Source: Oscillospiraceae bacterium (GTDB lineage Bacteria > Bacillota > Clostridia > Oscillospirales > Oscillospiraceae). From it: a stretch of 24,000 bases of DNA. The notes beneath the pieces are model-generated. The model had not been told where the DNA came from, did no database searches, and worked only from the letters and a program-made list of their open reading frames with translations. Below are positions 2,479 to 17,677 of the stretch, piece after piece. Position 1 is the stretch's first letter. Each line of letters starts with the position of its first letter. Where the stretch lies: the NCBI GenBank assembly GCA_022795735.1, contig JAAWHG010000007.1:49770-73769 (forward strand), in the 5' to 3' direction. A program made the position numbers and the translations under genes.

Positions 2479-2508
2479 CGCCCCTTCCTGTTCTTGTAGG
2501 AAGGGGCG
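2479..2508 (+). terminator. Hairpin after B1 (10-bp GC-rich stem, weak T tail)
   Basis: cgccccttcc (2479-2488) pairs with ggaaggggcg (2499-2508) around a 10-nt loop. There is no strong U-tract, so termination efficiency is uncertain. Confidence 0.45.
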
Positions 2509-2516
2509 CTTCAAAG

Positions 2517-2545
2517 GTAATATGTAATATTTTATTTCGTATATT
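2517..2545 (+). promoter_or_regulatory. Promoter P7 (GTAATA-N17-TATATT), degenerate family member
   Basis: -35-like GTAATA at 2517-2522, 17-nt spacer ending in tttCG, -10 TATATT at 2540-2545. It sits between the hairpin and the dNMP kinase gene. Confidence 0.35.
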
Positions 2546-2623
2546 TCATTAGATTTCAAAAATGCTGTCAAAAACAGGAAAAGCTTTCGTTAAACGGAGC
2601 TGCGAAAATGGAGGTTTTACAAA

Positions 2624-3235: not shown

Positions 3236-3313
3236 GCGTCTAATATTTTTCGCTTTATCCCCTAAAATCCATCAGCCAGATCGCAAGATTTTGAAACAAG
3301 GAGGAGTATAAAC

Positions 3314-3736
3314 ATGAAAACTTATCTGGAAATCAACGGGAAGAAAATCTCCATGGATGATCTTCTGAAAGAACTGGGCGTTGACGCCGAGCCATGCGAA
3401 GTAAATCTCTGTCAGGATACACCTTCCGGAACAATCCGGGCAAAAGCATCGCCGGATCCCCATTGCCCCGCAATGTATCTGGATTTTGTTCGCAAAGACG
3501 ACCCTGACACACTCCCTATCGATATCGCCAAGACCGAAGGTCCGGCCGGCTGTCCAGTTCGGACGTATCTGTTTGATCGGGAGTCATATCATTTTGCGTA
3601 CTCCGATATGGATACACGCCCTGACGCTGAGGTCGATAAGAAACTGATGTCGCCTGAACTGGTTGTGAGCGGAGAGCCTTACCTGGACACAATCGTCAAG
3701 CTGGAAGACGAGTTTGTGCGGGTTTATGACATGTAA
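3314..3736 (+). CDS. Hypothetical protein, cassette gene A2 (paralog of 1900-2172 with a C-terminal extension)
   Basis: AGGAGG RBS. The N-terminal ~75 aa align with A1; the extra ~60 aa at the C-terminus have no counterpart in A1. Confidence 0.8.
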   Translation: MKTYLEINGKKISMDDLLKELGVDAEPCEVNLCQDTPSGTIRAKASPDPHCPAMYLDFVRKDDPDTLPIDIAKTEGPAGCPVRTYLFDRESYHFAYSDMDTRPDAEVDKKLMSPELVVSGEPYLDTIVKLEDEFVRVYDM

Positions 3737-3781
3737 AACCGGAACATAGGAAAGGAGGCTTGCCAGCGTTCCCCATTCAAC

Positions 3782-3810
3782 GGGTGTTGGGTGGGGGAAG
3801 CGCTGGGGGG
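3782..3810 (+). other. G-run cluster (GGG-N4-GGG-N1-GGGGG-N7-GGGGGG), potential G-quadruplex
   Basis: Four G-runs at 3782-3784, 3789-3791, 3793-3797 and 3805-3810, ending 2 nt before the ATG at 3812. They cover the position where an RBS is expected. Confidence 0.35.
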
Positions 3811-3811
3811 T

Positions 3812-4432
3812 ATGGAAAAATGTACGAAGTGTGCAGTGTTTTTCGTGTGTAATGAGCAAGTAGAGTTGAAATGCAAGACGAAATGCAGAAAATGCTTGCT
3901 GCGGTTCCACTGTGATGTACAAACAGAATGCATCTGCAAAACAAATGAATTTTGCAAGTATATCAAAGACTATGGAAATCACGGGCATTGGGAACCGCTT
4001 TATGTTTGTTCATACTGCGGACAAACCTCAAAGGTGCAATTTTCTGAATGCCCATGCTGTAATACCAATATGGATGGATTCGACCAATATATATCTGAGG
4101 AGGAAACGAAGTTGAAAAAATGGTACACAATTACTTTTAGCGCCAAATTGGACGAAAATGATGTCCGCGCAATGGGTAGCTGCTTCTATGAAGCGATGGA
4201 GGAATCCATGCTCATCTCGGAATGCTCGAATTTGAAGATTGAGGCGGAACCGGGCAGTGAAAATGGCGGTTCCAAAACCTGGCGCACTGTCACTTTCAGC
4301 GCCAAACTGGACGAGGATGACATCTCCGCAATGCGTAGCTGCTTCTATGAAGCGATGAATGAGTCCATGCTGATTCAGGAGTGCACAGATCTGGAAATCA
4401 AGGAGGAAGAAAAAGATGAAAACAATGGATGA
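3812..4432 (+). CDS. Hypothetical protein, cassette gene B2: Cys-rich N-terminal region plus 2 x ~45-aa B module
   Basis: ATG at 3812 (MEKCTKC...), inside track ORF 3791-4432. The N-terminal 100 aa carry many CxxC pairs (CTKC, CRKC, CSYCG...CPCC). The C-terminal half holds two copies of the WYTITFSAKLDENDVRAMGSCFYEAMEESMLISECSNLKIEAE module. Confidence 0.75.
   Translation: MEKCTKCAVFFVCNEQVELKCKTKCRKCLLRFHCDVQTECICKTNEFCKYIKDYGNHGHWEPLYVCSYCGQTSKVQFSECPCCNTNMDGFDQYISEEETKLKKWYTITFSAKLDENDVRAMGSCFYEAMEESMLISECSNLKIEAEPGSENGGSKTWRTVTFSAKLDEDDISAMRSCFYEAMNESMLIQECTDLEIKEEEKDENNG
4115..4408 (+). repeat. In-frame tandem duplication (2 units, period 159 nt) inside B2
   Basis: Units start at 4115 and 4274. 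An exact 22-mer, tagctgcttctatgaagcgatg, occurs at 4177-4198 and again at 4336-4357. Confidence 0.9.
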
Positions 4433-4855: not shown

Positions 4856-5053
4856 ATGTATAATCAGGAATCATGGTTTGAAGCGCCGGAGGAGCGCATA
4901 TTTGGTTGCTGCGACTTCTGCGGCAATGAAATTTACGAGGGCGAACCCTACTACAGCATTGGCGGCAAGATGATTCATGGTGAGTGCCTGGGAGATTTTG
5001 CTGCAAGTCATTTTGCGGGCTGCTTGAAGGAGGCTGTCTGCGATGGCATGTAG
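4856..5053 (+). CDS. Small Cys/His-containing protein, possibly 3'-truncated by the IS
   Basis: GGAGGAG RBS at 4840-4846, ATG at 4856 (MYNQESWFEAPEERIFGCCDFCGNEIYEGEPYYSIGGKMIHGEC...). The TAG stop at 5051 lies right at the left end of the IS element, and no terminator precedes the IS. Confidence 0.65.
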   Translation: MYNQESWFEAPEERIFGCCDFCGNEIYEGEPYYSIGGKMIHGECLGDFAASHFAGCLKEAVCDGM

Positions 5054-5088
5054 TTTTTGCAATGTGTCTTATCACACGTGGCGTAATA

Positions 5089-5109
5089 CCCCTGCCTTCA
5101 GGCATGGGG
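5089..5109 (+). repeat. IS left-end subterminal hairpin (CCCCTGCC-ttca-GGCA[T]GGGG)
   Basis: Stem of 4+4 bp with bulged T5105 and a 4-nt loop. Same architecture as the right-end hairpin. Confidence 0.8.
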
Positions 5110-5180
5110 ATATAAGCCACACCTTGTTCCCCCGTAAAAGACTTCCGGGGATTGCATTAGATATCGTTGAATGGTATAAT

Positions 5181-5579
5181 ATGGCCATGGAATATAAAAG
5201 CAATCACAATGTGGTGTACTCTTGCAAGTATCATGTGGTTTGGTGTCCAAAATATCGCCGCAAGGTCTTGGTCAATGGTGTCGATGTGCGATTGAAGGAA
5301 CTCATAGAGGAAATCTGCGACGAATACCGCACCGACATCATAGAGATGGAAATCATGCCCGACCACATCCATTTGCTCATGGAGGTAGACCCTCAATTTG
5401 GAATACACAAAGCTGTGAAGCTGATTAAAGGACGAACTTCCCGTATTTTGAGACAAGAATATGGATGGCTGCGCTCAAGGCTCCCATCTTTGTGGACAAA
5501 TTCGTACTTTGTTTCCACTGTTGGCGGCGCACCTCTTTCAGTGATTAAGCAGTACATAGAGAATCAGAAGAATGTATGA
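5181..5579 (+). CDS. tnpA: IS200/IS605 Y1 (HUH) transposase TnpA
   Basis: MAMEYKSNHNVVYSCKYHVVWCPKYRRKVL..., HUH motif in MPDHIHLL, catalytic Tyr region WTNSYFVSTVGG, ~132 aa. ATG at 5181 is internal to track ORF 5043-5579; ATG at 5187 is an alternative start. Confidence 0.9.
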   Translation: MAMEYKSNHNVVYSCKYHVVWCPKYRRKVLVNGVDVRLKELIEEICDEYRTDIIEMEIMPDHIHLLMEVDPQFGIHKAVKLIKGRTSRILRQEYGWLRSRLPSLWTNSYFVSTVGGAPLSVIKQYIENQKNV

Positions 5580-5588
5580 GGTGCAGGG

Positions 5589-6701
5589 ATGGAATACAGC
5601 TATAAATTCCGCATCTATCCCAACATGGTGCAGGTACAGCAGATACAGAGGACATTTGGCTGCTGCCGGTTCGTCTGGAACCACTACCTTGCATTGCGAA
5701 AGGAAATCTATGAGCATGACGGGAAAACAATGAACTATAATGCCTGTTCCGAGGATATGACACAGCTTAAAAAAGTCCTTCCGTGGTTGAAAGAGGTAGA
5801 TGCAACCGCTCTGCAATCCTCTCTGCGTGATTTAGATACCGCCTATCAGAACTTCTTCCGGCGGGTGAAGCAAGGCCAGAAGCCCGGCTATCCCCGGTTC
5901 AAAAGCAAACACGACCACCAGAGAAGATACAAGAGTAAGTGCGTGGGCACGAATGTCAAAGTGCTGGATAAAGCTGTACAGCTTCCCAAACTCGGCCTTG
6001 TGAAATGCCAGGTCAGCAAAGAGGTAAAGGGCCGTATCCTGTCGGCAACCGTCGGCCAAAATCCATCCGGGAAATACTTTGTCTCGCTGTGCTGTACTGA
6101 TGTGGAGATAGAACCGCTGCCCTCCACCGGGGCGGTGGCCGGTATCGACATGGGCCTGAAAGCATTTGCTATTACCTCCGATGGTATTGAGTATCCTAAC
6201 CACAAGTACCTGGCCAAGAGGCAGAAGAAGCTTGCCAGGCTCCAGCGGCAGCTGTCCCGAAAATCAAAGGGCAGTAACCGTCGGGAAAAGGCGAGAATCC
6301 AAGTTGCCCGTCTCCATGAACACGTTACGAATCAGAGGGCGGATATGCTCCACAAGCTGTCCACTGGCCTTGTGCGAGACTATGACCTGATAGCCATTGA
6401 GGATTTAGCGCCGTCCAACATGGTGAAGAATCACAGTTTGGCTCGGTCTATCTCCGATGCTTCCTGGGGCGAGTTCCGTCGGCAGTTAGAGTACAAGGTG
6501 GCATGGTACGGAAAGCAGGTGGTCACGGTAGACCGCTTCTTCCCGTCCTCTCAGCTATGCTCCGCCTGCGGCGCTCAGTGGCCTGGAACAAAGGACTTGT
6601 CCGTGCGCGAATGGACTTGCCCAGTGTGCGGCGCTGTCCATGACCGGGATGTGAACGCCGCAAAGAACATCTTGAATGAAGGTCTGCGTCTGCTGGCGTA
6701 G
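5589..6701 (+). CDS. tnpB: TnpB (IS605 OrfB) RNA-guided RuvC endonuclease
   Basis: Typical N-terminus YKFRIYPN...Q; RuvC D in GIDMGLK; E in IAIEDL; zinc ribbon CSACG...CPVCG; Ruv[15 protein letters not shown]; 370 aa. Confidence 0.9.
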
Positions 6702-6846
6702 CCTACATATGGTACGGTGGGGCACACCGGAACCTATACGCTCGGGGACACCGTGTAAGACCTCGCTGGTGCAGGCTGTGGTGGTTGAGCCGAGAATCCC
6801 CCGGCTTTAGCCGTGGGGAGTGTCAATGCGCAAGCCGAAGACGAGA
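6670..6846 (+). ncRNA. Predicted TnpB omega (re)RNA scaffold plus ~20-nt guide. The 5' end is a guess.
   Basis: By analogy with characterised TnpB systems, the scaffold overlaps the tnpB 3' end and the right end (structured region 6700-6826). The guide is the flank immediately after TCAA: tgcgcaagccgaagacgaga (6827-6846). Confidence 0.45.
6798..6818 (+). repeat. IS right-end subterminal hairpin (CCCCCGGC-ttta-GCCG[T]GGGG)
   Basis: 4+4 bp stem with bulged T6814, preceded by GAAT (6794-6797) and followed by AGTGTCAA. Confidence 0.8.
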
Positions 6847-6902
6847 CTGATCACTATTATCCAAAGTTTTGCCCGGAGTGCGGACGAAAACATGAAGACT
6901 AA
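6828..6902 (+). pseudogene. Orphan coding tail AQAEDETDHYYPKFCPECGRKHED* directly right of the IS
   Basis: An open frame starts at the IS right junction, contains a CPEC zinc-knuckle half-site, ends in TAA at 6900-6902, and is followed 9 nt later by a strong terminator. There is no start codon or RBS of its own. Confidence 0.35.
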
Positions 6903-6910
6903 CATTTTGA

Positions 6911-6946
6911 AAACGCAAACTTTGAAATACAAGTTTGCGTTTTTTC
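6911..6946 (+). terminator. Rho-independent terminator (11-bp stem plus T6)
   Basis: aaacgcaaact (6911-6921) pairs with agtttgcgttt (6932-6942), and the T-run extends to 6946. Confidence 0.75.
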
Positions 6947-7040
6947 TTTCGGGTCAGAATGCAGAAAAACAAATGCGTCCCCCTGCCACCTCCCACAGAC
7001 CACTCAACTCCCCACACCACCCGACTCCTTCTCTCACACC

Positions 7041-7051
7041 CCCGCAAAGGC
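7041..7051 (-). repeat. GCCTTTGCGGG 11-mer, copy d (minus orientation)
   Basis: The plus strand reads cccgcaaaggc. On the minus strand the 11-mer is followed by a G-rich tract (the plus-strand C-runs at 6979-7043). Confidence 0.8.
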
Positions 7052-7087
7052 AATAACAAAACCCCCTCCCGCAAATGCAGGAGGAGG
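7052..7087 (-). terminator. Terminator downstream of ligA (potentially bidirectional)
   Basis: ccccctcccgc (7062-7072) pairs with gcaggaggagg (7077-7087), including G:U pairs, around loop aaat. On the minus strand it is followed by TTTTGTTATT, and on the plus strand by TTATTTTTA. Confidence 0.65.
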
Positions 7088-7126
7088 TTATTTTTATGCT
7101 CGAAATACGGAATTATCCGAACAAAT

Positions 7127-9076
<1,950 letters not shown>

Positions 9077-9262
9077 TTATAATATGTTATTTTTTGAAAT
9101 TTTGTCGTTATCCATACGTTGAAGTATTTCGGCTTTAAGTTTGCTAAGCCGTTCGCCCAGTTTTCTTTCGGATTTTCGGTTCCAGCCATTTACAGACTTG
9201 ACCAGTTCTGTCAACACATTTTCAAATTCATGTAAAAGCTCATCGTTTGATTTGTTTTTCAT
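9077..9262 (-). CDS. Small hypothetical protein (helical, charged)
   Basis: 61 aa, RBS-like AGAGG upstream, tightly packed between the flanking genes of the minus operon. Confidence 0.55.
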   Translation of the reverse strand: MKNKSNDELLHEFENVLTELVKSVNGWNRKSERKLGERLSKLKAEILQRMDNDKISKNNIL

Positions 9263-9274
9263 AATGAACCTCTT

Positions 9275-9652
9275 TTATAATTTTCCTCTTTGCAAAATTT
9301 GCTCACTTTTATCAAGCAGTTCTTGTGTAAATCCATTGACATATCCATTATCATCACGCACATTGACAAGAGCAAACATTGTGCAGATTCGTTCCGACAG
9401 GCTTGGTTCCCACAAAGCGTAGTTCTGAAGCAACTGGCGCAATTCATATCCCGGATTATTCGCACTGTTCATGTAGTCGAACAAAGCTGTCCTTAAAATG
9501 TTTTCCAAGAGTTTACCTTGATAGATTTCTTTTTCACAGCCGCACTCCTGGCTCATATAAGCCGCAATATCTCCAAATGGATCTCCCGTTGCGCCTTCTA
9601 ACCGACAATGGCCTTTGCAGCACATGATGATGTTGCAAGTTCGTTGTTCCAT
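9275..9652 (-). CDS. Hypothetical Cys-rich protein
   Basis: ATG at 9652 is preceded by GGAGGT. The track start at 9664 (GTG) falls inside the RBS. The N-terminus is MEQRTCNIIMCCKGHCRLEG; no family recognised. Confidence 0.7.
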   Translation of the reverse strand: MEQRTCNIIMCCKGHCRLEGATGDPFGDIAAYMSQECGCEKEIYQGKLLENILRTALFDYMNSANNPGYELRQLLQNYALWEPSLSERICTMFALVNVRDDNGYVNGFTQELLDKSEQILQRGKL

Positions 9653-9675
9653 ATGTACCTCCACTATTTTACTTG

Positions 9676-9711
9676 AAAGCTACCCTACGGCTAAAACCGG
9701 GGTTAGCTTTT
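9676..9711 (+). terminator. Plus-oriented hairpin with short T-run, lying inside the minus-strand operon
   Basis: aaagcta...tagcttt outer stem with a GC-rich inner stem (ccc/ggg, cgg/ccg), followed by TTTT on the plus strand only. Read on the minus strand there is no U-tract. Confidence 0.4.
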
Positions 9712-9713
9712 CT

Positions 9714-9724
9714 GCCTTTGCGGG
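9714..9724 (+). repeat. GCCTTTGCGGG 11-mer, copy b
   Basis: Exact 11-mer, followed by the mini-hairpin TGCGTC-tga-GGCGCA (9725-9739). Confidence 0.8.
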
Positions 9725-9739
9725 TGCGTCTGAGGCGCA

Positions 9740-10288
9740 TTAAAACGAAGTTATGTACTTTCTTAAAAATTCCGTCACCATCTTAACCGCCATATATCTT
9801 TCATTCTCATTCGCCTCGAAAAGCGCTCCTTTGTCCCCAATGATTGCCACAGATCCCACACACATATTATTTCGCATAATCGGCATAACTTCTGCAACAG
9901 GGTATCTATTGTAGGCGTCAAGAAAAATAGTCTCTGTGTTATCACCGGCATCAATACGGGATTCGCTCATGCTCCGCTGCATTTCCGGGCTAACGGGTCT
10001 GTCGATAATAGAATTCTTTTCTGCGCCGGATGCCGCAATGACATTATCTCTGTCTGTAACCGCCATGGAAAATCCAAAGCTGTTGAAAACAGCGTCACAA
10101 ATCTGTTTCGCCAAAACACCAAGTTCTTTTTTCATAAAAGAATGTTTTTTGAGTGCAATTTCTCCTTCAGTCGTTATATAGATTTCAAATTCATCGCCTT
10201 CCTTGATCTTTGCCATGCGGCGGATTTCCCTTGGAATGGTTATGCGGCCTAGATCGTCAATGTAGCGAGTGGTTCCGATTGTTTTCAT
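9740..10288 (-). CDS. SpoVT/AbrB-family transcriptional regulator (AbrB-type N-domain plus GAF-like C-domain)
   Basis: The N-terminus MKTIGTTRYIDDLGRITIPREIRRMAKIKEGDEFEIY matches the swapped-hairpin AbrB/SpoVT signature (RRIDDLGRVVIPKEIRR...GD.LEI). The 182-aa length and the C-terminal part (AVTDRDNVIAASG...GSVAII) parallel the remembered SpoVT. AGGAGG RBS. Confidence 0.8.
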   Translation of the reverse strand: MKTIGTTRYIDDLGRITIPREIRRMAKIKEGDEFEIYITTEGEIALKKHSFMKKELGVLAKQICDAVFNSFGFSMAVTDRDNVIAASGAEKNSIIDRPVSPEMQRSMSESRIDAGDNTETIFLDAYNRYPVAEVMPIMRNNMCVGSVAIIGDKGALFEANENERYMAVKMVTEFLRKYITSF

Positions 10289-10324
10289 GATAATTACCTC
10301 CTGATAATAATTGTTTAACTGAAT

Positions 10325-10576
10325 TTAAAATGCGTCAAGTGAAGCAGAGAAAGCCAGAGGATAAATTGTCCATCTATAGATTGCTTCTCCGCAAGTAACT
10401 TCAGCGAACCCAGGGCGGACTTCAATCGAAGAATCGCCATCCCCATCCATTTCCTCATATGTTGCAGAGGCGTCCTTTGCAAGGAATGCATTAGCGTCTT
10501 CTTCATTGTCGAACGAATTGACAGAAAGTATGTCCAGATTTTCGTCTACGCAGATTACAAGAAATTTCGTGTTCAT
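10325..10576 (-). CDS. Small acidic hypothetical protein, first gene of the minus operon
   Basis: 83 aa, RBS AGGGGAAAG upstream, immediately downstream of promoter P6. Confidence 0.65.
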   Translation of the reverse strand: MNTKFLVICVDENLDILSVNSFDNEEDANAFLAKDASATYEEMDGDGDSSIEVRPGFAEVTCGEAIYRWTIYPLAFSASLDAF

Positions 10577-10617
10577 AAACTTTCCCCTTTTAAAACATCA
10601 TTTTTGGAAACTAACAA

Positions 10618-10646
10618 ATTATACGGGTAAGCAATTAAAATATTAG
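10618..10646 (-). promoter_or_regulatory. Promoter P6 (CTAATA-N17-TATAAT, CCCG 5' of the -10), drives the minus operon
   Basis: The minus strand reads CTAATAttttaattgcttaCCCGTATAAT: -10 at plus 10618-10623, -35 at plus 10641-10646. Confidence 0.55.
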
Positions 10647-10674
10647 TATTTTCAATTTAAAAATATAAAGTATT

Positions 10675-10703
10675 TTGTTATTTGAAATTTTTACCCGTAT
10701 TAT
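10675..10703 (+). promoter_or_regulatory. Promoter P2 (TTGTTA-N17-TATTAT, CCCG 5' of the -10), divergent from P6
   Basis: TTGTTAtttgaaatttttaCCCGTATTAT. Back-to-back with P6, with 28 bp between the two -35 elements. Confidence 0.5.
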
Positions 10704-10730
10704 CTTTGTGTTGAAAGGAGATGTGTTAAC

Positions 10731-10895
10731 TTGAGTTATGATATTAGTTTGCAAAATTCAGTCACCGGAGAAACAATTCTTTTGGACAATCTTCATCTGA
10801 TGGCTGGAGGAACATTTGCCGCTGGCGGTACAAGAGAGGCATGACTGAATATCACTTATAACTATTCAAAGTGGTATTACAACCCGGCTTGTTGA
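10731..10895 (+). pseudogene. 5' fragment of a phage gene, with an in-frame TGA, truncated at the IscB element
   Basis: AAAGGAG RBS, then TTG at 10731. Reads (M)SYDISLQNSVTGETILLDNLHLMAGGTFAAGGTREA-[TGA 10842-10844]-LNITYNYSKWYYNPAC-TGA. The coding-like sequence continues through the internal stop and ends where the structured IscB upstream region begins. Confidence 0.55.
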
Positions 10896-11105
10896 ACTAT
10901 TCAATTCTTGATCAATTCAGCGGGTCGGATACCGACAATACTTGTCCATTTTGCCACCCGATCACGTATCGCGTGACATGACACTCCGGGATGCACTCCC
11001 AGTTCCGGACTCTGTAGCGTGAACAAGTAATCTGGGGAGACCTTACATAGACGGGTATCACATATCTGCCTGTGGTTTACTACATTTTTGAAAGGAGATG
11101 GCGAA
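10880..11105 (+). ncRNA. Predicted IscB omega RNA (guide plus ~200-nt scaffold). Ends are approximate.
   Basis: Characterised IscB systems encode the omega RNA directly upstream of iscB. This 210-nt non-coding stretch is rich in local hairpins (GTCGG-ata-CCGAC, TCACG-tatcg-CGTGA, GGGA-tgcac-TCCC nested inside CCGG...CCGG). The only ORF here (10901-11110, minus) looks spurious. Confidence 0.5.
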
Positions 11106-12554
11106 TACATGGTATATGTATTAAATCATGAAGGAAAACCTTTAATGCCCACGACACGCTATGGACACGTCCGCCGTCTTCTAAAGACGGGTCAGGCGAA
11201 AGTTAAATACGGCAACCCGTTTACCATCCAACTATGCTATAAAACCGAAGACAAAGTTCAGCCTGTTATTTTGGGCATTGATCCAGGTCGAACAAATATT
11301 GGGCTTTGCGCTGTTACCGACGATGGAACTGCTCTATTTGCAGCCAAAATCATCACCCGAAACAAAGACATTCCCAGACTCATGCGGAAACGCAAGCAAT
11401 TCCGCCAAAAGCACCGGCAAGTCAAGAGACGCTTGAAACGCCGCCGTCGTGCAAAAAAGAATAATACTATCTTGAAGACCGGCATTCTTCAACGACACCT
11501 AACGGGTTATAGTAAAGATAAATGCGTCACTGTACATGATATCAGAAACAAGCAATCTCGTTTCAGCAATCGCTGCCGCAGCCCAAATTGGCTGACTCCG
11601 ACAGCAAACCAATTACTGCAGACACATATCAATGCTGTCAACAAGATCAGTAAGTATCTCCCTGTTTCAGGCATATCTATTGAATTGAATAAGTTTGCCA
11701 TGATGAAATTGGATGATTCAACTATATTCGGGAAAGACTTTCAAAATGGACCACTGAAAGGATATGGTAAAGACATCCATCAAGCGGTTTCCGACATTCA
11801 AGATGGAAAATGCCTTCTCTGCGGCAAATCCATTGCTGAATACCATCATGTGCGAACACGCAGTAAAGACGGCAGCAATACCATTGGAAATCTTGTCGGC
11901 TTATGCCATGAATGCCATAAGAAAGTCCATACGGACGAATCTGTTAAACAACAGCTTGCCACTGTTAATTCCGGTTTCCGAACGAAATACGATGCTCTTG
12001 GCGTGTTAAACCAAATACTGCCTTATGTGATCAATATCCTCAGGAGAAAATATCCCTTACATATAACGACGGGATATGAAACTTCGCGTGTGAGAAAAAC
12101 AGCCAACCTGCTGAAAGACCATCATGTAGATGCGCATCTCATAGCAATCTCAGGGTTGAATGTAAAACGAATCATAACAATCGATCATTGTTATGCCATC
12201 AAACAATTCAGACGCCATGACAGGCAGGCATGTAAACGCGAAATGCTGAACCGGCGTTATTATCTTGGGAACCAACTGGTAGCGACAAACCGACATAAAG
12301 CCTTTGAACAAACCACGGATAGTCTGGCCGACTACATAACAAATGGAGGCAGAGCCGACCATTTGACTGTAAAGCATATAACGCGAGCCATGACGGACAA
12401 AAAACGTTTCATGCCGGGTTGTCAAGCCGGAAACAAAACTATATTAAAACGAGCTGAAGGCAATTATTGGTTTGACGATGGGTCAAAAACAACTTGTAAG
12501 AAAACATTAATAAATAAACGAAATGCCGGGCTTGTTTTTGTATCAAATTTGTAA
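10896..12554 (+). mobile_element. Non-autonomous IS200/IS605-superfamily IscB element (no tnpA). Boundaries are approximate.
   Basis: Omega-RNA region plus iscB, inserted into the gene at 10731. The right end was not identified; a TCAA at 12543-12546 inside the last iscB codons is a candidate. Confidence 0.5.
11109..12554 (+). CDS. iscB: IscB RNA-guided nuclease (PLMP, RuvC and HNH domains)
   Basis: MVYVLNHEGKPLMPT (PLMP domain). RuvC-I GIDPGRTNIG. Arg-rich bridge helix KRRLKRRRRAKK. RuvC-II ISIELNKF. HNH CLLCG...YHHV...GSNTIGNLVGLCHECHKKVH. RuvC-III DHHVDAHLIAI. 481 aa from the ATG at 11109. Confidence 0.88.
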   Translation: MVYVLNHEGKPLMPTTRYGHVRRLLKTGQAKVKYGNPFTIQLCYKTEDKVQPVILGIDPGRTNIGLCAVTDDGTALFAAKIITRNKDIPRLMRKRKQFRQKHRQVKRRLKRRRRAKKNNTILKTGILQRHLTGYSKDKCVTVHDIRNKQSRFSNRCRSPNWLTPTANQLLQTHINAVNKISKYLPVSGISIELNKFAMMKLDDSTIFGKDFQNGPLKGYGKDIHQAVSDIQDGKCLLCGKSIAEYHHVRTRSKDGSNTIGNLVGLCHECHKKVHTDESVKQQLATVNSGFRTKYDALGVLNQILPYVINILRRKYPLHITTGYETSRVRKTANLLKDHHVDAHLIAISGLNVKRIITIDHCYAIKQFRRHDRQACKREMLNRRYYLGNQLVATNRHKAFEQTTDSLADYITNGGRADHLTVKHITRAMTDKKRFMPGCQAGNKTILKRAEGNYWFDDGSKTTCKKTLINKRNAGLVFVSNL

Positions 12555-12576
12555 TTTTTATAAAGGAGGAATCACT

Positions 12577-13356
12577 ATGAAAACCAAAATTACTGCTCTC
12601 ATTCTCTCCCTGCTCCTCGCCCTTTTCATCTTCCCGACCGCTTTTGCGGCAGAGAGTAAGCCAATCTATTTTGGCAACACGGCCATTGACTGGATGGCAG
12701 ATGAAACGCTGAAACTCATCCCTCTGGAAGGGAAATCGCTGGAGGAAAAGGCCACGGCTGTCTATGATTGGATGATCGTAAACTGCAAGCGTAACGACTG
12801 GGATGGAACATACTACTTTGATCCCAATGTTGTTGCCGCCCAAGCAAAAGCAATGGTTATCCCTTATGAAGAAAAACTCGCGGCCGGCGAGCTTGTACTG
12901 CACCAGGATATCAGCCTGATTGTCCCCGACAATATATTGGATTCGGTAAGTCTGCATGATTCCAATATGTACATCAATATGTCTGCGGCAAATATGTTCC
13001 TGACAAGATGTGGCAACTGTTCGGACTTCTCGTCTATGCTGATTGTCCTGCTGGGGCATTTGGGGGTAGACTGTCGGGCTGTTTCTGGGGAGTTTATCAA
13101 CCTGAACGGAACCCGCGTCGCTCATACATGGAACTATGCCCTTATCAATGGGGAGTACCGGTGGCTTGATGTACGAATCGACCATTCGCTGTACAATATC
13201 TTTAAGAATGGCCAGCTATCCCGTCAATATCTGATGATTTCCGATACGAATGCATGGGCGAAAGACCATGTATGGACTCACACTTACAGCGATTGGCTTG
13301 CGTCAAATGTTGAGGCGGTGCAGACAATGTATCAGCAGGATTTTTCTGCGACGTGA
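12577..13356 (+). CDS. Secreted transglutaminase-like cysteine protease superfamily protein
   Basis: AAGGAGG RBS. Signal peptide MKTKITALILSLLLALFIFPTAFA/AES. Transglutaminase-core pattern GNCSDFSSMLIVLLGHLGVDCRAVSG ... HTWNYALINGEYRWLDV (Cys-His-Asp). Confidence 0.7.
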   Translation: MKTKITALILSLLLALFIFPTAFAAESKPIYFGNTAIDWMADETLKLIPLEGKSLEEKATAVYDWMIVNCKRNDWDGTYYFDPNVVAAQAKAMVIPYEEKLAAGELVLHQDISLIVPDNILDSVSLHDSNMYINMSAANMFLTRCGNCSDFSSMLIVLLGHLGVDCRAVSGEFINLNGTRVAHTWNYALINGEYRWLDVRIDHSLYNIFKNGQLSRQYLMISDTNAWAKDHVWTHTYSDWLASNVEAVQTMYQQDFSAT

Positions 13357-13380
13357 AGCCTGTCACCTTATGCAGATTAA

Positions 13381-13412
13381 AGGCTTGGGTATGTTCTGGC
13401 ATTCCCAAGCCT
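13381..13412 (+). terminator. Hairpin after the transglutaminase-like gene (9-bp stem, weak tail)
   Basis: aggcttggg (13381-13389) pairs with cccaagcct (13404-13412). The downstream sequence ctaattta is only weakly T-rich. Confidence 0.4.
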
Positions 13413-13451
13413 CTAATTTAAATAGTTCAGAAAATTCAGGAGGAATTTTAG

Positions 13452-13682
13452 ATGATTTTGTCGTTTATATTGGGGGTGTGCGTCATGCCTGTTTATACGT
13501 TCATTGCGATTTGCTTGATTGACGACGGGAAAAATTGGGGCGTTTTCCTGTGTGGCCCCGCTGCCTGGACAGTGTTCATATTTCGTTTTATGGCAGAATC
13601 TGTTCGATGTTGGAAAAGAGATCATAATAAGCGCTCTCTGCTTTTGGACGAAAATGATTGCATTTACGCCGTTCTGGTATGA
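13452..13682 (+). CDS. Small two-TM membrane protein (may be the 5' part of a frameshifted gene)
   Basis: AGGAGGA RBS. Two hydrophobic segments (ILSFILGVCVMPVYTFIAICLI and WGVFLCGPAAWTVFIFRFM), then a charged tail. Confidence 0.6.
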   Translation: MILSFILGVCVMPVYTFIAICLIDDGKNWGVFLCGPAAWTVFIFRFMAESVRCWKRDHNKRSLLLDENDCIYAVLV

Positions 13683-13744
13683 GCAGCGGATGCATTTCGC
13701 CTTGTCAAAGGATGGGATTTTCCAAGAATGAGAATATTCAAAAG

Positions 13745-13906
13745 ATGGTGAGTATGTTCAATGAACGAAAAGAAGAATGGGGCAAAGAAGATATCAACAT
13801 GGGTTTTGCCAGTATGCGATATGTTCCCAGAAGTGTGTGGCAAGACTTTGCACAGGTGAGACGAAAAGAAGCAAAAAAGATTCTTGCGGAAAGTAAGAAG
13901 TTGTAA
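13745..13906 (+). CDS. Small hypothetical ORF or 3' remnant of a frameshifted gene
   Basis: MVSMFNERKEEWGKEDINMGFASMRYVPRSVWQDFAQVRRKEAKKILAESKKL is protein-like, but there is no convincing RBS. Coding-like text continues across three frames from 13452 onward. Confidence 0.35.
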   Translation: MVSMFNERKEEWGKEDINMGFASMRYVPRSVWQDFAQVRRKEAKKILAESKKL

Positions 13907-13960
13907 AAGGGCTCTCCTAGCAAAAGGCGGGAGAGCCACAAAAATTTATTGCAAAACCCT

Positions 13961-13989
13961 TTGATTTTTTCCGAAAGAAATAGTATAAT
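13961..13989 (+). promoter_or_regulatory. Canonical sigmaA-type promoter for the tRNA (TTGATT-N17-TATAAT)
   Basis: TTGATT at 13961-13966, exact 17-nt spacer, TATAAT at 13984-13989, 10 nt before tRNA position 1. It differs from the CTAATA/CCG family. Confidence 0.7.
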
Positions 13990-13999
13990 ATTATATCTT

Positions 14000-14075
14000 C
14001 GAGGTGTAGCTCAGTTGGCAGAGCGCCTGCTTTGGGAGCAGGAGGCCCAGGGTTCGAGACCCTGCACTTCGACCA
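14000..14075 (+). tRNA. tRNA-Pro (anticodon UGG), CCA encoded
   Basis: Cloverleaf folded by hand. Acceptor CGAGGTG/CACTTCG (one G:U pair). D arm GCTC-AGTTGGCA-GAGC. Anticodon arm CCTGC-TTTGGGA-GCAGG (U33, UGG, G37). T arm CAGGG-TTCGAGA-CCCTG. Discriminator A, then CCA. Confidence 0.9.
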
Positions 14076-14101
14076 TTTGAAATAAGCCGCCCTATCATAC
14101 G

Positions 14102-14130
14102 CCCCGCCCAACAGGGCGGGGTTATTTATT
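14102..14130 (+). terminator. Rho-independent terminator after the tRNA
   Basis: ccccgccc-aaca-gggcgggg, followed by TTATTTATT. Confidence 0.75.
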
Positions 14131-14150
14131 AAAAAAAGAGAGATGAAGTA

Positions 14151-14225
14151 GTGATTATCAGCGCCAGCCGCCGGACAGATATTCCTGCTTTCTACCAACG
14201 TATGATTTCAAAAATAAAAGATTGA
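14151..14225 (+). pseudogene. N-terminal fragment resembling DUF1848-family proteins
   Basis: VIISASRRTDIPAFY matches the N-terminus I remember for DUF1848 (MIISASRRTDIPAFY...). Similarity is lost after ~16 codons and the frame stops after 24. Confidence 0.4.
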
Positions 14226-14235
14226 AAGTGATTGC

Positions 14236-14519
14236 GTGAAATCAATTGAAACAACTCGATCCGAATGTGAGGCAAAAATTCAGGGATTTCAATACAGTTT
14301 TACAGTGAAAGAACTTTTCTCTTTTCTTTTTGGCAAAAAAATTGTACCAAATGTGGAGGAAAATTAACCAGAAAAACGTTTTGTAATTGTAAAAGGCGCG
14401 GATTTGAATAGCAAGTCTGATCCACCTTCACGTCGCAAATTAATGTGAAACGCTATGTTTACCTATATACTTGCCAGCAATGTGGTTCCCAATATACGCT
14501 GAAAGACCTTACTTCATAA
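14236..14519 (+). pseudogene. Degraded small zinc-ribbon gene (one frameshift in an A7 run, then in-frame TAG and TGA)
   Basis: VKSIETTRSECEAKIQGFQYSFTVKELFSFLFGKK, then a shift at ggcaaaaaaatt (14332-14343), then NCTKCGGKLTRKTFCNCKRRGFE-[TAG 14409]-QV-[TGA 14418]-STFTSQINVKRYVYLYTCQQCGSQYTLKDLTS*. The CxxC...CxxC halves are separated by stop codons in the same frame. Confidence 0.45.
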
Positions 14520-14540
14520 AAATATAACAGGGGTGCTACA

Positions 14541-14906
14541 ATGTTTGTTATTGAAGACATTAAAAAAGAAGTACAGCGGCTTGACGATCTTCACGGTGGT
14601 CATGTCTCAGAAATCCCCATCTACATATCCAAGCGCTTTACCCGAACGCTTGGGAGATGCGAGGGAAAGCTTGAGAGAGGAAGGTATGTTCCTACCAGGA
14701 TCGGCTTTGCACACAGACTTATGGAACTGGCAACTGAGGAACATTTTTTGGAGACAGTGCGGCATGAATACGCTCATGCATATCTTCTCCAATTGACTGG
14801 AGAAAAGCATTTACATGACAGGTTGTGGAAGGGATATGCCCTGCAATTTGGATGTTCTGGGAAAACAAAGGCTCTTTTTCCAGAGGTTGATTTGGTCGAT
14901 GTTTAA
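14541..14906 (+). CDS. SprT-like zinc metalloprotease domain protein
   Basis: RTLGRC...I...L block, then HExxH in VRHEYAHAYL, then HDRLWKGYALQFG, as remembered for the SprT-like family. 121 aa; it appears to lack the usual C-terminal zinc ribbon. Confidence 0.6.
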   Translation: MFVIEDIKKEVQRLDDLHGGHVSEIPIYISKRFTRTLGRCEGKLERGRYVPTRIGFAHRLMELATEEHFLETVRHEYAHAYLLQLTGEKHLHDRLWKGYALQFGCSGKTKALFPEVDLVDV

Positions 14907-15055
14907 AAAATGGAGGTGTTTTCGCGTGGCAAATACAGAATATTTTATTATCCAATTACTGGATATGAATGGCAGTCAGATCTGCGGGAGGAAATGCCGA
15001 TAGAGATGTTATTCTGATTGCTGCAATTAAAGCTATGGGAAAGAAATACGCCCCC

Positions 15056-15091
15056 AGCCCCGCAGGACTGCCACTTTTGTGGGGCTTTTTG
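15056..15091 (+). terminator. Possible terminator (AGCCCC...GGGGCT plus T5)
   Basis: 6-bp GC stem with a large loop, followed by TTTTT at 15086-15090. Confidence 0.4.
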
Positions 15092-15157
15092 CGCCCTCAC
15101 GCAGTCAACCCGCAGAGGCAAATCAAAAAAACAGTCTGTCTTGACTGAAGTACAATT

Positions 15158-15186
15158 CTGATATTTATTTTTAAAATCAATATAAT
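15158..15186 (+). promoter_or_regulatory. Promoter P8 (CTGATA-N17-TATAAT), family member without CCG
   Basis: CTGATA at 15158-15163, 17-nt AT-rich spacer, TATAAT at 15181-15186, 26 nt before the TTG start at 15212. Confidence 0.45.
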
Positions 15187-15211
15187 CCCCAGTCTCGTAA
15201 AAAGGACAATT

Positions 15212-15493
15212 TTGAAAGGGGATATTAACAATGGGACAAAGATTAAGAAACAGAACCCGGAAATCACAACTGTCACAATGCCCGGAACTGTATCTCCTAA
15301 TAATAATCAAGATCTTTTGTATGCAGTTCGGTTGCTGGAGGGTACTGGAGCTGGAATTGACAAAAGTGAACAGAGAAAAATTCTGAATGAAGATCTGTGC
15401 GATGATATTCAGGAAGTAATTGATATTGTTGATCAAACCAAAGACCCTGGCATTCTCCTGCCTGATGGCCGGGTCCTGTCATGGATTGCCTGA
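15212..15493 (+). CDS. Hypothetical protein
   Basis: TTG start with AAAGGA 5 nt upstream. The downstream sequence (LLYAVRLLEGTGAGIDKSEQRKILNEDLCDDIQEVIDIVDQTKDPGILLPDGRVLSWIA) is protein-like. The start is uncertain; ATG at 15278 is an alternative. Confidence 0.55.
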   Translation: MKGDINNGTKIKKQNPEITTVTMPGTVSPNNNQDLLYAVRLLEGTGAGIDKSEQRKILNEDLCDDIQEVIDIVDQTKDPGILLPDGRVLSWIA

Positions 15494-15498
15494 CAGCG

Positions 15499-15532
15499 CC
15501 CCACTCCCCACCCCCGCGCGCCCCGCAAAGGC
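15499..15532 (-). repeat. GCCTTTGCGGG 11-mer, copy e (minus orientation), plus four G-runs on the minus strand
   Basis: The plus strand has cccgcaaaggc at 15522-15532, part of the perfect hairpin CCCGC-aaag-GCGGG. C-runs lie at 15499-15502, 15506-15509, 15511-15515 and 15521-15524, which is a G4-type motif on the minus strand. Confidence 0.7.
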
Positions 15533-15575
15533 GGGAATCGAAATGTGAATGGATTTAGAAATGGAGGTATAACAA

Positions 15576-15740
15576 ATGAAGGCGTATGATATTGAATGGG
15601 ACACAGATGATTCCGAAGGGACGGCGTTACCGAAAGAAATTGATATCCCGGCTGGGATGACGGATATTGACGAAATCTCAGACTATATTTCTGATGAAAC
15701 AGGATTTTGTCACAAGGGTTTCAAACTGAAAACAGACTAA
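15576..15740 (+). CDS. Small acidic protein (54 aa), below the ORF-track cutoff
   Basis: GGAGGT RBS 7 nt upstream. MKAYDIEWDTDDSEGTALPKEIDIPAGMTDIDEISDYISDETGFCHKGFKLKTD*. Followed by a strong terminator. Confidence 0.7.
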   Translation: MKAYDIEWDTDDSEGTALPKEIDIPAGMTDIDEISDYISDETGFCHKGFKLKTD

Positions 15741-15769
15741 GGGACAACCTGATTATATATTAAGCCCCC

Positions 15770-15801
15770 GGCTCCTGCGGTTTTCGCAGGAGCCGTTTTT
15801 T
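15770..15801 (+). terminator. Rho-independent terminator
   Basis: ggctcctgcg (15770-15779) pairs with cgcaggagcc (15785-15794), followed by GTTTTTT. Confidence 0.8.
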
Positions 15802-15809
15802 CGTGCAGC

Positions 15810-15838
15810 CTGATAATTAAAAATTTTTCCCGTATTGT
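15810..15838 (+). promoter_or_regulatory. Promoter P3 (CTGATA-N17-TATTGT, CCCG 5' of the -10)
   Basis: CTGATAattaaaaatttttCCCGTATTGT, immediately after the terminator and 35 nt before the ATG at 15873. Confidence 0.5.
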
Positions 15839-15872
15839 CAATCAGAACAAAAACAAAGGGGGTTTAAAAAGG

Positions 15873-16157
15873 ATGTTGAAACAATATGAGTGGGAGCAAA
15901 TCGAGAAACTTATTGCTGACAATAGTTTTCCAGATCAATTTGAATGTGAGATCGAACCGGCGATGCTGGGAGGTAAGCCGCATGATTGGCTGCTCTGGAA
16001 TCAACTGAGCGCTCTGTGGACGGCGCTTTGCATCCATTTCAGCTTGGAGCCTGATACAAATGATTACGACCACCGTGTTATGTACATTTGGAATCAGATA
16101 GGCTGTGAAGGAGATTTTGACGACTTCGACCTTTTTATGAGCCGATTTCTTTGTTAA
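15873..16157 (+). CDS. Hypothetical protein
   Basis: 94-aa ORF, first gene after P3, acidic, no family recognised. Confidence 0.65.
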   Translation: MLKQYEWEQIEKLIADNSFPDQFECEIEPAMLGGKPHDWLLWNQLSALWTALCIHFSLEPDTNDYDHRVMYIWNQIGCEGDFDDFDLFMSRFLC

Positions 16158-16175
16158 TTTAGGGAGGAAATGAAA

Positions 16176-16895
16176 ATGAAAAAGGAATATATCGACGCAT
16201 GTGAGAATCTTGGCTGGACGGTATATGAAGATGAGGACAGCTGGGTGGAGTTGTCAAGGCGCTCTCCGGCTGGAGAAGACTTCTATTTCAGTGTCAATAC
16301 GGAAGACTTTGTAGAGGAGATCAATGAATACGCAGCCAGCTTCGACGTGGATGAGCATGTCGAACAATGGATACCGAGTCGAGGGAAGAAAGGTGTTCCC
16401 TCCAGTATTCGTGAACTGTTGGAAGATGCTGAGGCTATAAAGAAAATGCTGAAAGAATTATCCGCTAAATTGACGGGGGAAGTGTATGAGGGCATTTGTC
16501 CAATTTGTGGCGTCCCCATTGAATATTACGACAATAAGCCAATTGATCGTGGCCATGTTTATTTTTGGACCTGTTCAAAATGCGGAACATCCGGCGAAGA
16601 GAAATGCAGTCATGTGTTCGACGGACATCACTACCGCGTTATTGACGGACATGGGAATCTGTTTTCATCTGAAGGTATCCGGTTTGGTGATGGAACTCCA
16701 ACTGCACCTAATCCACTGGATGAACACGAAGGAATTTGCCCGGTTTGTGGTGCATCTATTGAATACTCAGGTGACAGTGATCAGATTGGGGAATATGGAA
16801 GCCGCCATTGGGAATGTCTGAAATGTGGAGCCTCTGGCAATGAGGGATACAAGGAAGTGTTTGTTGAACATCATTTGACAGCCTATGTTCTTTAA
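16176..16895 (+). CDS. Hypothetical protein with two copies of a zinc-ribbon module
   Basis: GGAGG at 16163-16167 favours the ATG at 16176 over 16170. EGICPICGVPIEYYD...WTCSKCGTSGEE...VFDGHH is repeated as EGICPVCGASIEYSG...WECLKCGASGNE...VFVEHH. Confidence 0.75.
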   Translation: MKKEYIDACENLGWTVYEDEDSWVELSRRSPAGEDFYFSVNTEDFVEEINEYAASFDVDEHVEQWIPSRGKKGVPSSIRELLEDAEAIKKMLKELSAKLTGEVYEGICPICGVPIEYYDNKPIDRGHVYFWTCSKCGTSGEEKCSHVFDGHHYRVIDGHGNLFSSEGIRFGDGTPTAPNPLDEHEGICPVCGASIEYSGDSDQIGEYGSRHWECLKCGASGNEGYKEVFVEHHLTAYVL

Positions 16896-16927
16896 AAAAT
16901 TACCAACCAATGAAAGGAGAACCTGTA

Positions 16928-17677
16928 ATGAAGGTTTTGTACTTCAAGGGAGCTGAATGAAGTGGCACTGAGGTCAGCAAAGCGACCATTAGCGACTACC
17001 GGATTCGTACCGCCTTCGATCTGAACGATGGAAAAGCGGTGTATCTGGAAATTATCGGTTCTGAACACACGAAATACAGTTCGCCGTAAATTCACAAATG
17101 GCCGTATACCGGCTTTGCAGATTCCTGTTTCTATATCACCGACGAGAAGCAGAACAATAATGAAAACAAACACAGAATCCGGCTGACTGACAAGCGGAGA
17201 ATTTTTGAGTATACAGAAAAGTCCATCTTAAAATTTGTCAATAAACTTGGCGCTAACTTTGACGCAATCAGAGTTGTCAATGATTTGGGCGGATTCAGGG
17301 TGATTAAGGAGAAATATTCTAATCATAATCCGTCTAATTTTAATTACGGCGACGAATTTGTTTATGATGCGGAAATGGTATCTCGCCGACAAATGGTCTA
17401 TGACAAGATTTCTGAAATCGAAAAAGCGGAACTGGCGGAGGACAGAGCAAACCATGGCAACAAGTTTGTTCACTCTCCCGGCCCAATCGACTACCCCAAC
17501 TTCTCTCTGTGGGTTGATGAAGAAAACGCTGGTGTCCCGCATCTCCAGCGCCATTTCAATGGCTATAACAAGCACTGGGTAATCTGCACTGATTGTGGGG
17601 AAACGCTGGATGATTGGATGGGGTCGATGACAGAGGCGCCGCTTGGGCAGTATGTTAAAAAGGCAATTAAAATTTAA
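16928..17677 (+). pseudogene. 250-codon coding-like frame interrupted by in-frame TGA (16958-16960) and TAA (17087-17089), with no frameshift
   Basis: AAAGGAGAA RBS, then ATG at 16928. I verified codon by codon that 16928-17677 is a single frame: MKVLYFKGAE*SGTEVSKATISDYRIRTAFDLNDGKAVYLEIIGSEHTKYSSP*IHKWPYTGFADSCFYITDEKQNNNENKHRIRLTDKRRIFEYTEKSILKFVNKL... It runs into track ORF 17285-17677, which may still be expressed on its own. Confidence 0.6.

Follow-up and report, generated by a model that had tools for sequence, protein, structure and literature searches.

A non-autonomous IscB/omega RNA element in a phage genome: scaffold, predicted guide and element-free sites

The IscB element and its protein

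The DNA analysed here, referred to as the window, is a stretch of 24,000 nucleotides (nt) from an Oscillospiraceae bacterium (GenBank assembly GCA_022795735.1, contig JAAWHG010000007.1, positions 49,770 to 73,769, forward strand), and coordinates are those of the window unless another contig is named. Positions 10881 to ~12568 almost certainly hold a non-autonomous IscB/omega RNA element, an OMEGA system of the ISC branch of the IS200/IS605 superfamily of insertion sequences (IS), located in a phage genome. The sequence of its protein, the covariation of its RNA and the relation of its guide to empty sites all place it among IscB/OMEGA elements; it falls short of the Rfam gathering score and lacks both the terminal hairpins and the simple insertion that are classical for IS200/IS605 elements. 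It is an OgeuIscB-like OMEGA element and an ordinary representative of a known family, a solid and useful finding that will not surprise a specialist. The element lies between the remnant of one phage gene and the start of another, and the features of the locus are as follows.

10675 to 10703, plus strand: candidate promoter of the interrupted gene, sigma-70-type TTGTTA-17-TATTAT (consensus scan)
10731 to 10880, plus strand: phage gene remnant, first 50 codons (tblastn, translations and collinearity with the related contigs L031 and L034)
10865 to 10880, plus strand: predicted omega RNA guide of 16 nt, TTCAAAGTGGTATTAC, the final 16 nt of phage DNA before the scaffold
10881 to 11108, plus strand: omega RNA scaffold (HEARO-type), 228 nt, up to the iscB start (sub-threshold RF02033 match and covariation)
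11109 to 12554, plus strand: iscB, 481 amino acids (aa) (Pfam, PDB, motifs and the ratio of nonsynonymous to synonymous substitution rates, dN/dS)
12555 to 12568, plus strand: right terminal segment of the element, TTTTTATAAAGGAG, common to the copy in contig L010
12577 to 13356, plus strand: downstream phage gene for a secreted transglutaminase-core protein, 259 aa (Pfam Transglut_core, 8.9e-9)

The iscB gene is an intact 481-aa open reading frame (ORF) with an ATG start at 11109, the mechanical ORF call beginning at a TTG at 11088. Its product matches the Pfam families RRXRR (2.2e-43, residues 2-214) and HNH (2.4e-6), and residues 1-451 align with the OgeuIscB structures 7utn/7xht at an E value of 6.6e-134 and ~50% identity. 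The PLMP motif occupies residues 11-14, RuvC-I is marked by D58 (GIDPGR), RuvC-II by E192 (IELNKF) and RuvC-III by DHHVDAH at 337-343, whereas the HNH domain contains H246/H247 (EYHHV), N261 and H274 together with CxxC pairs at 235-238 and 266-269. These catalytic motifs line up with the same motifs of the solved IscB structure. Comparison with the 86%-identical copy in L010 gave a dN/dS of 0.115, the range quoted for iscB comparisons being 0.12-0.19. Because the motifs are present and dN/dS is 0.115, iscB is intact and under purifying selection; this confirms the intact and functional-looking IscB at 11109 described in an earlier reading made from the letters alone (the sequence-only reading). 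IscB homologs are numerous, with 2792 at E<=1e-10 among 8000 scored candidates.

Two further observations concern the iscB coding sequence. The final conserved codons (GLVFVSN) include TTTGTATCAAAT at 12537-12548, which is nucleotide-invariant in L010, L014, L017, L028 and L030, across proteins only 55% identical, while the C-terminal tails beyond VFVSN differ in length and sequence among the IscB copies. The same stretch folds as a 6-7-bp AT hairpin in the clade of L017, L028 and L030, and it may serve as a signal in the DNA itself, for example a transposon end. Contigs L028 and L029, which share an insertion site and have iscB at 2501-3958 in both, show 158 differences over 6.4 kb, 152 of them within the iscB ORF and virtually none in the omega RNA or in either flank. 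This pattern could be iscB allele swapping by gene conversion or a chimeric assembly of a multi-copy gene.

Omega RNA scaffold and element boundaries

An Rfam scan of the window at the default gathering threshold reported no HEARO and only a tRNA-Pro. A sensitive scan of 10600-11300 placed HEARO (RF02033), the family now recognised as the IscB omega RNA, at 10934-11061 with 29.5 bits and an E value of 3.5e-4. The match lies below the gathering score of 83 and covers the whole model with large deletions. The relatives likewise have sub-threshold matches, of 27-38.6 bits, at the corresponding place upstream of iscB, and HEARO matches from 15 bits were accepted by Meers et al. when they adjoined iscB (PMC10055086). 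We then aligned the upstream regions of seven loci that represent five lineages with IscBs 55-100% identical. RNAalifold predicted 42 pairs in 5 helices from this alignment, 15 of them with compensatory changes on both sides. In the predicted structure 93.8% of the cells are paired, compared with 28-46% in controls with the partners slid by 1-3 columns, and the observed covariation score was reached by 0/500 shuffles. On the grounds of the covariation, the slid controls and the shuffles, the region upstream of iscB is a conserved structured RNA of the IscB type, despite missing the Rfam membership threshold. The sequence-only reading had noticed a structured non-coding region directly upstream of iscB and had named a misfit to omega RNA models as an outcome that would speak against it; the sub-gathering HEARO match and the strong covariation both agree with such models. 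The structured core spans ~10885-11032 of a compact omega RNA of ~210 nt, a conserved CUGGGGAGACCUUAC lies at 11032-11046, and the ribosome-binding site (RBS) of iscB, AAAGGAG, is found at 11091-11097.

The left boundary was determined by comparing three independent contexts, the window, L010 and L014. L010 carries the same element at 84% DNA identity in an unrelated phage-like context, with homology extending over window 10881 to ~12568-12573, and the 72%-identical copy in L014 supports the left boundary at 10881. The copies in L014, L017, L028 and L030 begin at the same conserved RACCCRGCTTGT and have mutually unrelated upstream flanks, and flanks differ likewise when the window and L010 are included. 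Because the copies share their start but not their upstream flanks, the scaffold starts at 10881, and the predicted guide is the flank at 10865-10880. Homology to the phage gene ends at 10880-10882, and in a three-way alignment the window tracks the empty alleles to GGTATTAC(AA) and then enters the element. The junction had been placed at ~10895 in the sequence-only reading, 15 nt too far to the right; 10881-10895 is the first helix of the scaffold, which stays open in the frame of the remnant by chance. The guide expected at 10880-10896 accordingly moves across the junction, to its upstream side.

At the right end of the element, the window tracks L010 to TTTTTATAAAGGAG and tracks the empty alleles from AAGGAGG on, and the junction falls within AAGGAG (12563-12568), 6 nt in which the element and the transglutaminase gene's native RBS overlap. 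Similarity to the relatives with empty sites picks up again at 12563 (L031) and at 12545 (L034). The same remnant-plus-junction sequence, identical over 200 nt, is present in six independent assemblies, by which we rejected an assembly artefact. The last ~40 nt of the element were also considered as native phage intergenic DNA and this was rejected, the comparison with L031 being not significant (3751/5000) and that with L034 marginal and non-collinear (272/5000). For the window, a target-site duplication between the left and right flanks was not significant (820/5000 shuffles), and L017, L028 and L030 likewise showed none that was. The two copies closest to that of the window do have such repeats, although target duplications are, to our knowledge, not expected of IS200/IS605 elements. 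In L014 (1-15 vs 1679-1710) an exact 11-nt repeat of the guide-side flank, GAATGGAAATA, stands at the other end, and in L010 (5206-5226 vs 6906-6931) the guide-side flank AAAGGA-AATCAGC is matched by AAAGGAGAATCCGC at the other end, each with 0/5000 shuffles. L010 in addition encodes a drum RNA (RF02958, 63 bits vs a gathering score of 43) at 4929-5049, ~180 nt upstream of the IscB element.

The interrupted gene, its intact alleles and the predicted target

The remnant at 10731 is preceded by an RBS, AAAGGAG, at 10716-10722 and starts with TTG, where its relatives have ATG. Its frame translates as MSYDISLQNSVTGETILLDNLHLMAGGTFAAGGTREA, a stop, LNITYNYSKWYYNPAC and a second stop. The first stop, at 10842-10844, is an in-frame TGA that takes the place of a conserved Trp codon (TGG-to-TGA), where the homologs read GGTREAWLNITYNY. 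Recoding of this TGA as Trp was rejected, TGA being the ordinary stop for 8 of the 22 likely window genes; long ORFs are intact in the standard code. The TGA at 10842 is taken as a nonsense mutation because TGA is an ordinary stop in the window. Full-length homologs measure 121 aa (MT836154), 140 aa (IMG/VR L011) and ~147 aa (L027, frameshifted in the assembly), and L031 and L034 each have an intact 140-aa gene with which the remnant is collinear. The C-terminal two-thirds of the gene left no trace anywhere in the window, and the 140-aa protein has no match in Pfam or PHROG families. A word-indexed search returned only proteins of 56-91 aa, and these proved to be frameshifted or contig-cut versions; naturally short homologs were rejected on this basis. 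The homologs of 121-147 aa support the view in the sequence-only reading that the 10731 ORF with its good RBS is a truncated phage gene, and not a gene naturally of ~55 aa. Its coding frame from 10731 to ~10895 begins at a real gene start and is closed by the TGA well before 10895. With a nonsense codon and an altered start, the 50-codon remnant has begun to decay.

The homolog in L027 shifts frame between residues ~50 and 72. Homologs of the gene from several independent assemblies are likewise frameshifted or fused just past the NITYNY..YY motif, which is the site of the IscB element (L027 5001-5442; P0121, P0130, P0131, P0137, P0140), and in P0135 the homolog is fused to the C-terminus of a downstream gene. 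These frameshifts and fusions could be assembly errors or could mark a recombination hot spot.

The ATG of the transglutaminase gene lies 8 nt beyond the right junction and outside the element, and the gene is presumably now expressed from the junction RBS. The exact transglutaminase protein is listed in 34 index blocks, from which 24 contigs were read, and in all that extend far enough the gene is preceded by the 3' end of iscB; the largest contig with this iscB is 74.5 kb. Because every contig with the exact downstream protein carries iscB, the insertion is fixed in this phage lineage. Searches of viral and metagenome collections with iscB, the omega RNA core motif, the transglutaminase gene, and the guide plus AAAG yielded nothing useful, the sole metagenome match (L018) being rejected as a chance match. 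A scan of genome contigs returned only remote HNH matches.

IscB-free relatives (L031; L034-L039) were reached through transglutaminase proteins 84-91% identical to that of the window, which have an intact 140-aa gene upstream in place of iscB. L031 is uniformly ~82-84% identical to the window and has the same synteny, with genes for a ligase, a SpoVT-like protein, an 83-aa protein, the 140-aa protein and the transglutaminase. L031 4204-5655 is the aligned counterpart of window 9437-10877, and L031 5987-6755 that of window 12563-13331, so that the element replaces 331 nt of L031 that comprise the last ~90 codons and the intergenic spacer. A loss of ~330 nt is also seen relative to L034. The element is therefore no simple insertion, as ~330 nt of target DNA are gone relative to both relatives. 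The sequence-only reading was right that the element truncates a phage gene; insertion into it gives way to a replacement of ~330 nt, either by insertion plus deletion or by recombination. Possible histories are an insertion between TAC and AAAG followed by a deletion between AAAG and the RBS (A)AGGAGG, two insertions that recombined, or microhomology capture.

The sister phages L034-L039 share much of the backbone, 99.45% identical over window 5445-9083 and 97.6% identical over 14198-17047, including the same IS608-like element, and they have the intact 140-aa gene and are iscB-free at this locus. A ~5-kb tract around iscB (window ~9084-14197) is only 74-87% identical to L034, compared with 97.6-99.5% outside it. 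Gene content within the tract also differs, a SpoVT/AbrB-like gene at 9740-10288 being restricted to the window and DUF1848 and small ORFs to L034. The diverged tract is consistent with co-conversion.

The uninterrupted homolog of the 10731 gene, which the sequence-only reading had proposed to look for, thus exists, and it contains a perfect protospacer in sister phages. With a guide length of 16 nt adopted from characterised IscBs, TTCAAAGTGGTATTAC matches the intact allele 16/16 in L034, L035 and L037-L039, where the protospacer is followed by AAAGATGG, the directly adjoining bases being AAAGATGGGG (AAAGAT flank). The match is 15/16 in L036 and in the unrelated phage L027, and L031 has four mismatches. 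In an alignment of the left flank (555 columns, 73% identical) the longest identical run, 23 nt, abuts the junction. The target in the empty sites is followed by AAAG, as is the element both in the window and in L010, which makes AAAG a candidate target-adjacent motif (TAM). The TAM of OgeuIscB is NWRRNA (PMC12660989); AAAGGA (12562-12567) fits it, and a precise-excision joint (guide plus AAAGGA) would satisfy the OgeuIscB rule.

Possible routes of spread and relation to known systems

No tnpA is found inside the element, as the sequence-only reading had stated. About 98.5% of iscB genes have no nearby tnpA and ~1.5% have one (PMC10055086), so the absence, being the rule for iscB, is unremarkable. 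The sole Y1 TnpA in the window (within 5073-6826) belongs to the neighbouring IS608-like element, whose bounds were taken from the comparison with L031. That element has GC-rich bulged-T hairpins at both ends, a TTAT left flank and a TCAA right end. By comparison, the iscB-distal end of the IscB element has no significant hairpin relative to shuffles (z 0.18 in the window, -0.23 in L010), and its ends have only chance 7-9-mers in common with the left (LE) and right (RE) ends of the IS608-like element. Mobilisation by the neighbouring TnpA, doubted already from the letters, was rejected on both end structure and sequence; a cognate TnpA elsewhere in the host may nevertheless exist. The IS608-like element is itself complete (5073-6826), encodes the Y1 TnpA and a 370-aa TnpB, and splits a small zinc-ribbon ORF; L034 has this element and L031 lacks it. 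A 113-nt segment between two TCTTATTG repeats beside it is also missing relative to L031.

In IscB elements the transposon end delimits the omega RNA that lies upstream of iscB, and donor joints are cut by IscB (PMC10055086). For the element in the window we propose the following homing account. The promoter of the interrupted gene would transcribe through the remnant into the scaffold, giving an omega RNA with the 5' guide 10865-10880; the candidate promoter at 10675-10703 could drive read-through of the remnant, the omega RNA and iscB. Loaded with this RNA, IscB would cleave TTCAAAGTGGTATTAC where a purine-rich TAM (AAAG...) comes next, an arrangement that marks the IscB-free allele, whether carried by a co-infecting sister phage or formed at an excision joint. 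The copy in the phage itself would be spared because its guide adjoins the scaffold (AACCCG) and not a TAM. The break would be repaired from the IscB-bearing genome, with the 5' part of the gene and the transglutaminase gene as homology arms, so that the cassette would be copied in together with its deletion, homing without a transposase. Either a deletion between the AAAG that borders the element and the RBS motif (A)AGGAGG of the next gene, or microhomology-mediated repair at acquisition, would account for the ~330-nt loss. For TnpB in plasmids, homing independent of TnpA has been demonstrated, whereas in phages it is described as theoretical (PMC13565253). Taken whole, omega RNA-guided cutting of the IscB-free allele with repair from an IscB-bearing genome is in our judgement the best explanation of the locus and a fairly probable one, whereas active homing or competition as the present role of the element is an evenly balanced proposition.

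A wider reading would have the IscB elements of this clade spread between phages without a transposase, through repair from an IscB-bearing genome or short-homology capture, thereby dragging flanking DNA and sometimes deleting or duplicating target sequence. Hints in this direction are the perfect protospacer in sister phages, the diverged ~5-kb tract, the AAGGAG overlap with the ~330-nt loss, the 11-14-nt flank repeats in L010 and L014 and the concentration of L028/L029 differences inside iscB. We regard this generalisation as tentative and somewhat doubtful.

Several observations weigh against the homing account. Fixation of iscB with the exact downstream gene is what is seen, rather than ongoing spread. 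The guide match falls in a conserved codon stretch (NYSKWYY) and might be due to conservation alone, as the left-flank alignment has further identical runs of 17-18 nt close by. The sister-phage flank AAAGAT fails the NWRRNA of OgeuIscB, a protein ~50% identical to the one studied here, at position 6, and a search for the exact target in IMG/VR found none. Unrelated genes have also been gained and lost within the ~5-kb tract, and ordinary phage mosaicism explains the tract equally well. The number of promoter candidates of the TTGTTA-17-TATTAT kind in the region, obtained by a consensus scan, is not above the shuffled expectation.

The main competing explanation is a stranded non-autonomous IS, inserted by a TnpA that the host or another element supplied in trans, followed by an adjacent deletion of the remainder of the gene and now riding along passively; IscB would at most perform 'restorative' cleavage of rare excision joints, with no homing from phage to phage. 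That iscB is almost never accompanied by its own tnpA, and that such elements are regarded as mobilised in trans (PMC10055086), fits this explanation, as does the insertion point between TAC and AAAG, which, with AAAG also past the element in two contexts, resembles a target motif shared by transposase and TAM. The element is moreover fixed in all contigs of the lineage, and enough time has passed for a nonsense codon and an altered start codon to arise in the remnant. However, the only TnpA in the window is the IS608-like one, nothing in the IscB element corresponds to the hairpins, the TTAT target or the TCAA end of the IS608-like element, and the iscB-distal end lacks a significant hairpin (z about 0). 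The dN/dS of 0.12-0.19 and the full catalytic conservation argue that the nuclease is in use, and a lytic-type phage would offer little chance for restorative homing at a sister chromatid unless a TnpA were active. We consider a stranded IS unlikely, though it deserves serious attention.

IscB with its fixed guide might instead be kept as a weapon between phages, to destroy co-infecting or superinfecting sister phages with the intact 140-aa gene and so exclude competitors, copying being incidental or absent. The perfect protospacer occurs in a co-circulating sister lineage with a near-identical backbone, and the cassette flanks are 13-26% diverged from that lineage, which would hinder gene conversion while leaving cleavage unimpeded; for free-standing homing endonucleases this is an established concept where homology is too low for conversion (PMC13565253, section 3.2). 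A single mismatch or TAM change would nevertheless allow escape, and L036 already has one mismatch. By sequence alone a weapon is indistinguishable from homing; we hold this alternative to be improbable. An artefact, or a decaying iscB pseudogene without an RNA partner whose upstream structure is merely a hairpin-rich IS end, could appeal to the HEARO score of 29.5 bits, far below 83, and to the default gathering scan without a HEARO match. It is largely refuted and very improbable, given the same junction in six independent assemblies, the intact ORF with a dN/dS of 0.12, the 15 compensatory pairs across five lineages (slid controls, 28-46% pairing), and relatives with 27-39 bits at the same position, above the 15 bits accepted next to iscB (PMC10055086).

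The surroundings of the locus are those of a phage-like gene array. A tRNA-Pro (anticodon TGG; ARAGORN and Rfam) lies in its midst at 14000-14075, and the array encodes a deoxynucleoside monophosphate (dNMP) kinase (2624-3235, PHROG 139), an NAD-dependent DNA ligase (7127-9061, 644 aa) and an SprT-like protein (14541-14906), together with many small ORFs that match no family. These genes fit the replication or early region of a large phage. A 241-aa ORF at 16170-16895 has weak, sub-threshold matches to IS1595/Cas12f-TnpB-type zinc-ribbon domains and to a Lar-like PHROG, and may be the remnant of another transposon-associated protein.

IscB/omega RNA systems are ancestors of Cas9, and the natural role of IscB is known mainly from chromosomal IS elements with a helper transposase. 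The locus described here is a natural test case for RNA-guided phage homing, as it combines an intact nuclease, a guide RNA, an exact 16-nt target, near-identical sister phages and defined junctions, and it offers a candidate TAM (AAAG...) and a compact omega RNA for an OgeuIscB-like enzyme. Were the transposase-free spread true, it would be the first natural example of RNA-guided homing driving phage mosaicism; if homing is absent, the locus is an ordinary fixed, non-autonomous IscB element.

The closest characterised system is OgeuIscB with its omega RNA (PDB 7UTN, 7XHT), reportedly the system of Altae-Tran 2021. The domain order is the same (PLMP, split RuvC, bridge helix, HNH; 481 aa here vs 496 aa), the omega RNA likewise lies directly upstream with a 5' guide, and the right flank in the window, AAAGGA, fits the OgeuIscB TAM NWRRNA. 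The element in the window differs in its compact omega RNA (29.5 bits to HEARO), in being phage-borne and in having a target that can be identified in natural sister genomes. The ISGst-type IscB of Geobacillus stearothermophilus (Meers et al. 2023, PMC10055086) is likewise a non-autonomous IS whose omega RNA is delimited by a transposon end, and it uses a flank-derived guide and the motif at its other end as TAM to cleave the element-free site, as proposed for the window. ISGst-type elements have a cognate TnpA with matching LE/RE hairpins in the same genome and undergo 'restorative' homing after excision, whereas for the element in the window neither a cognate TnpA nor an LE hairpin was detected, the host is a phage, and any homing would take place between co-infecting genomes.

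TnpB-driven spread of IS605 in plasmids (PMC11870625) is, in the summary given in PMC13565253, a TnpA-independent copying into element-free replicons. By that summary it uses TnpB, with RuvC only, and an omega RNA at the 3' end, whereas the window has IscB in a phage and the analogous process is our proposal. The free-standing homing endonucleases of T-even phages (SegF, SegB and Mob; intronless homing or localized marker exclusion) share with the element described here a nuclease gene placed between conserved phage genes. They target the nuclease-free allele, with co-conversion of flanking markers to be expected, and the window shows a diverged ~5-kb tract. In contrast to SegF, SegB and Mob, recognition here is predicted to depend on a 16-nt RNA guide and a TAM and not on the protein, and the distinction between self and non-self would be set by the presence of the element itself.

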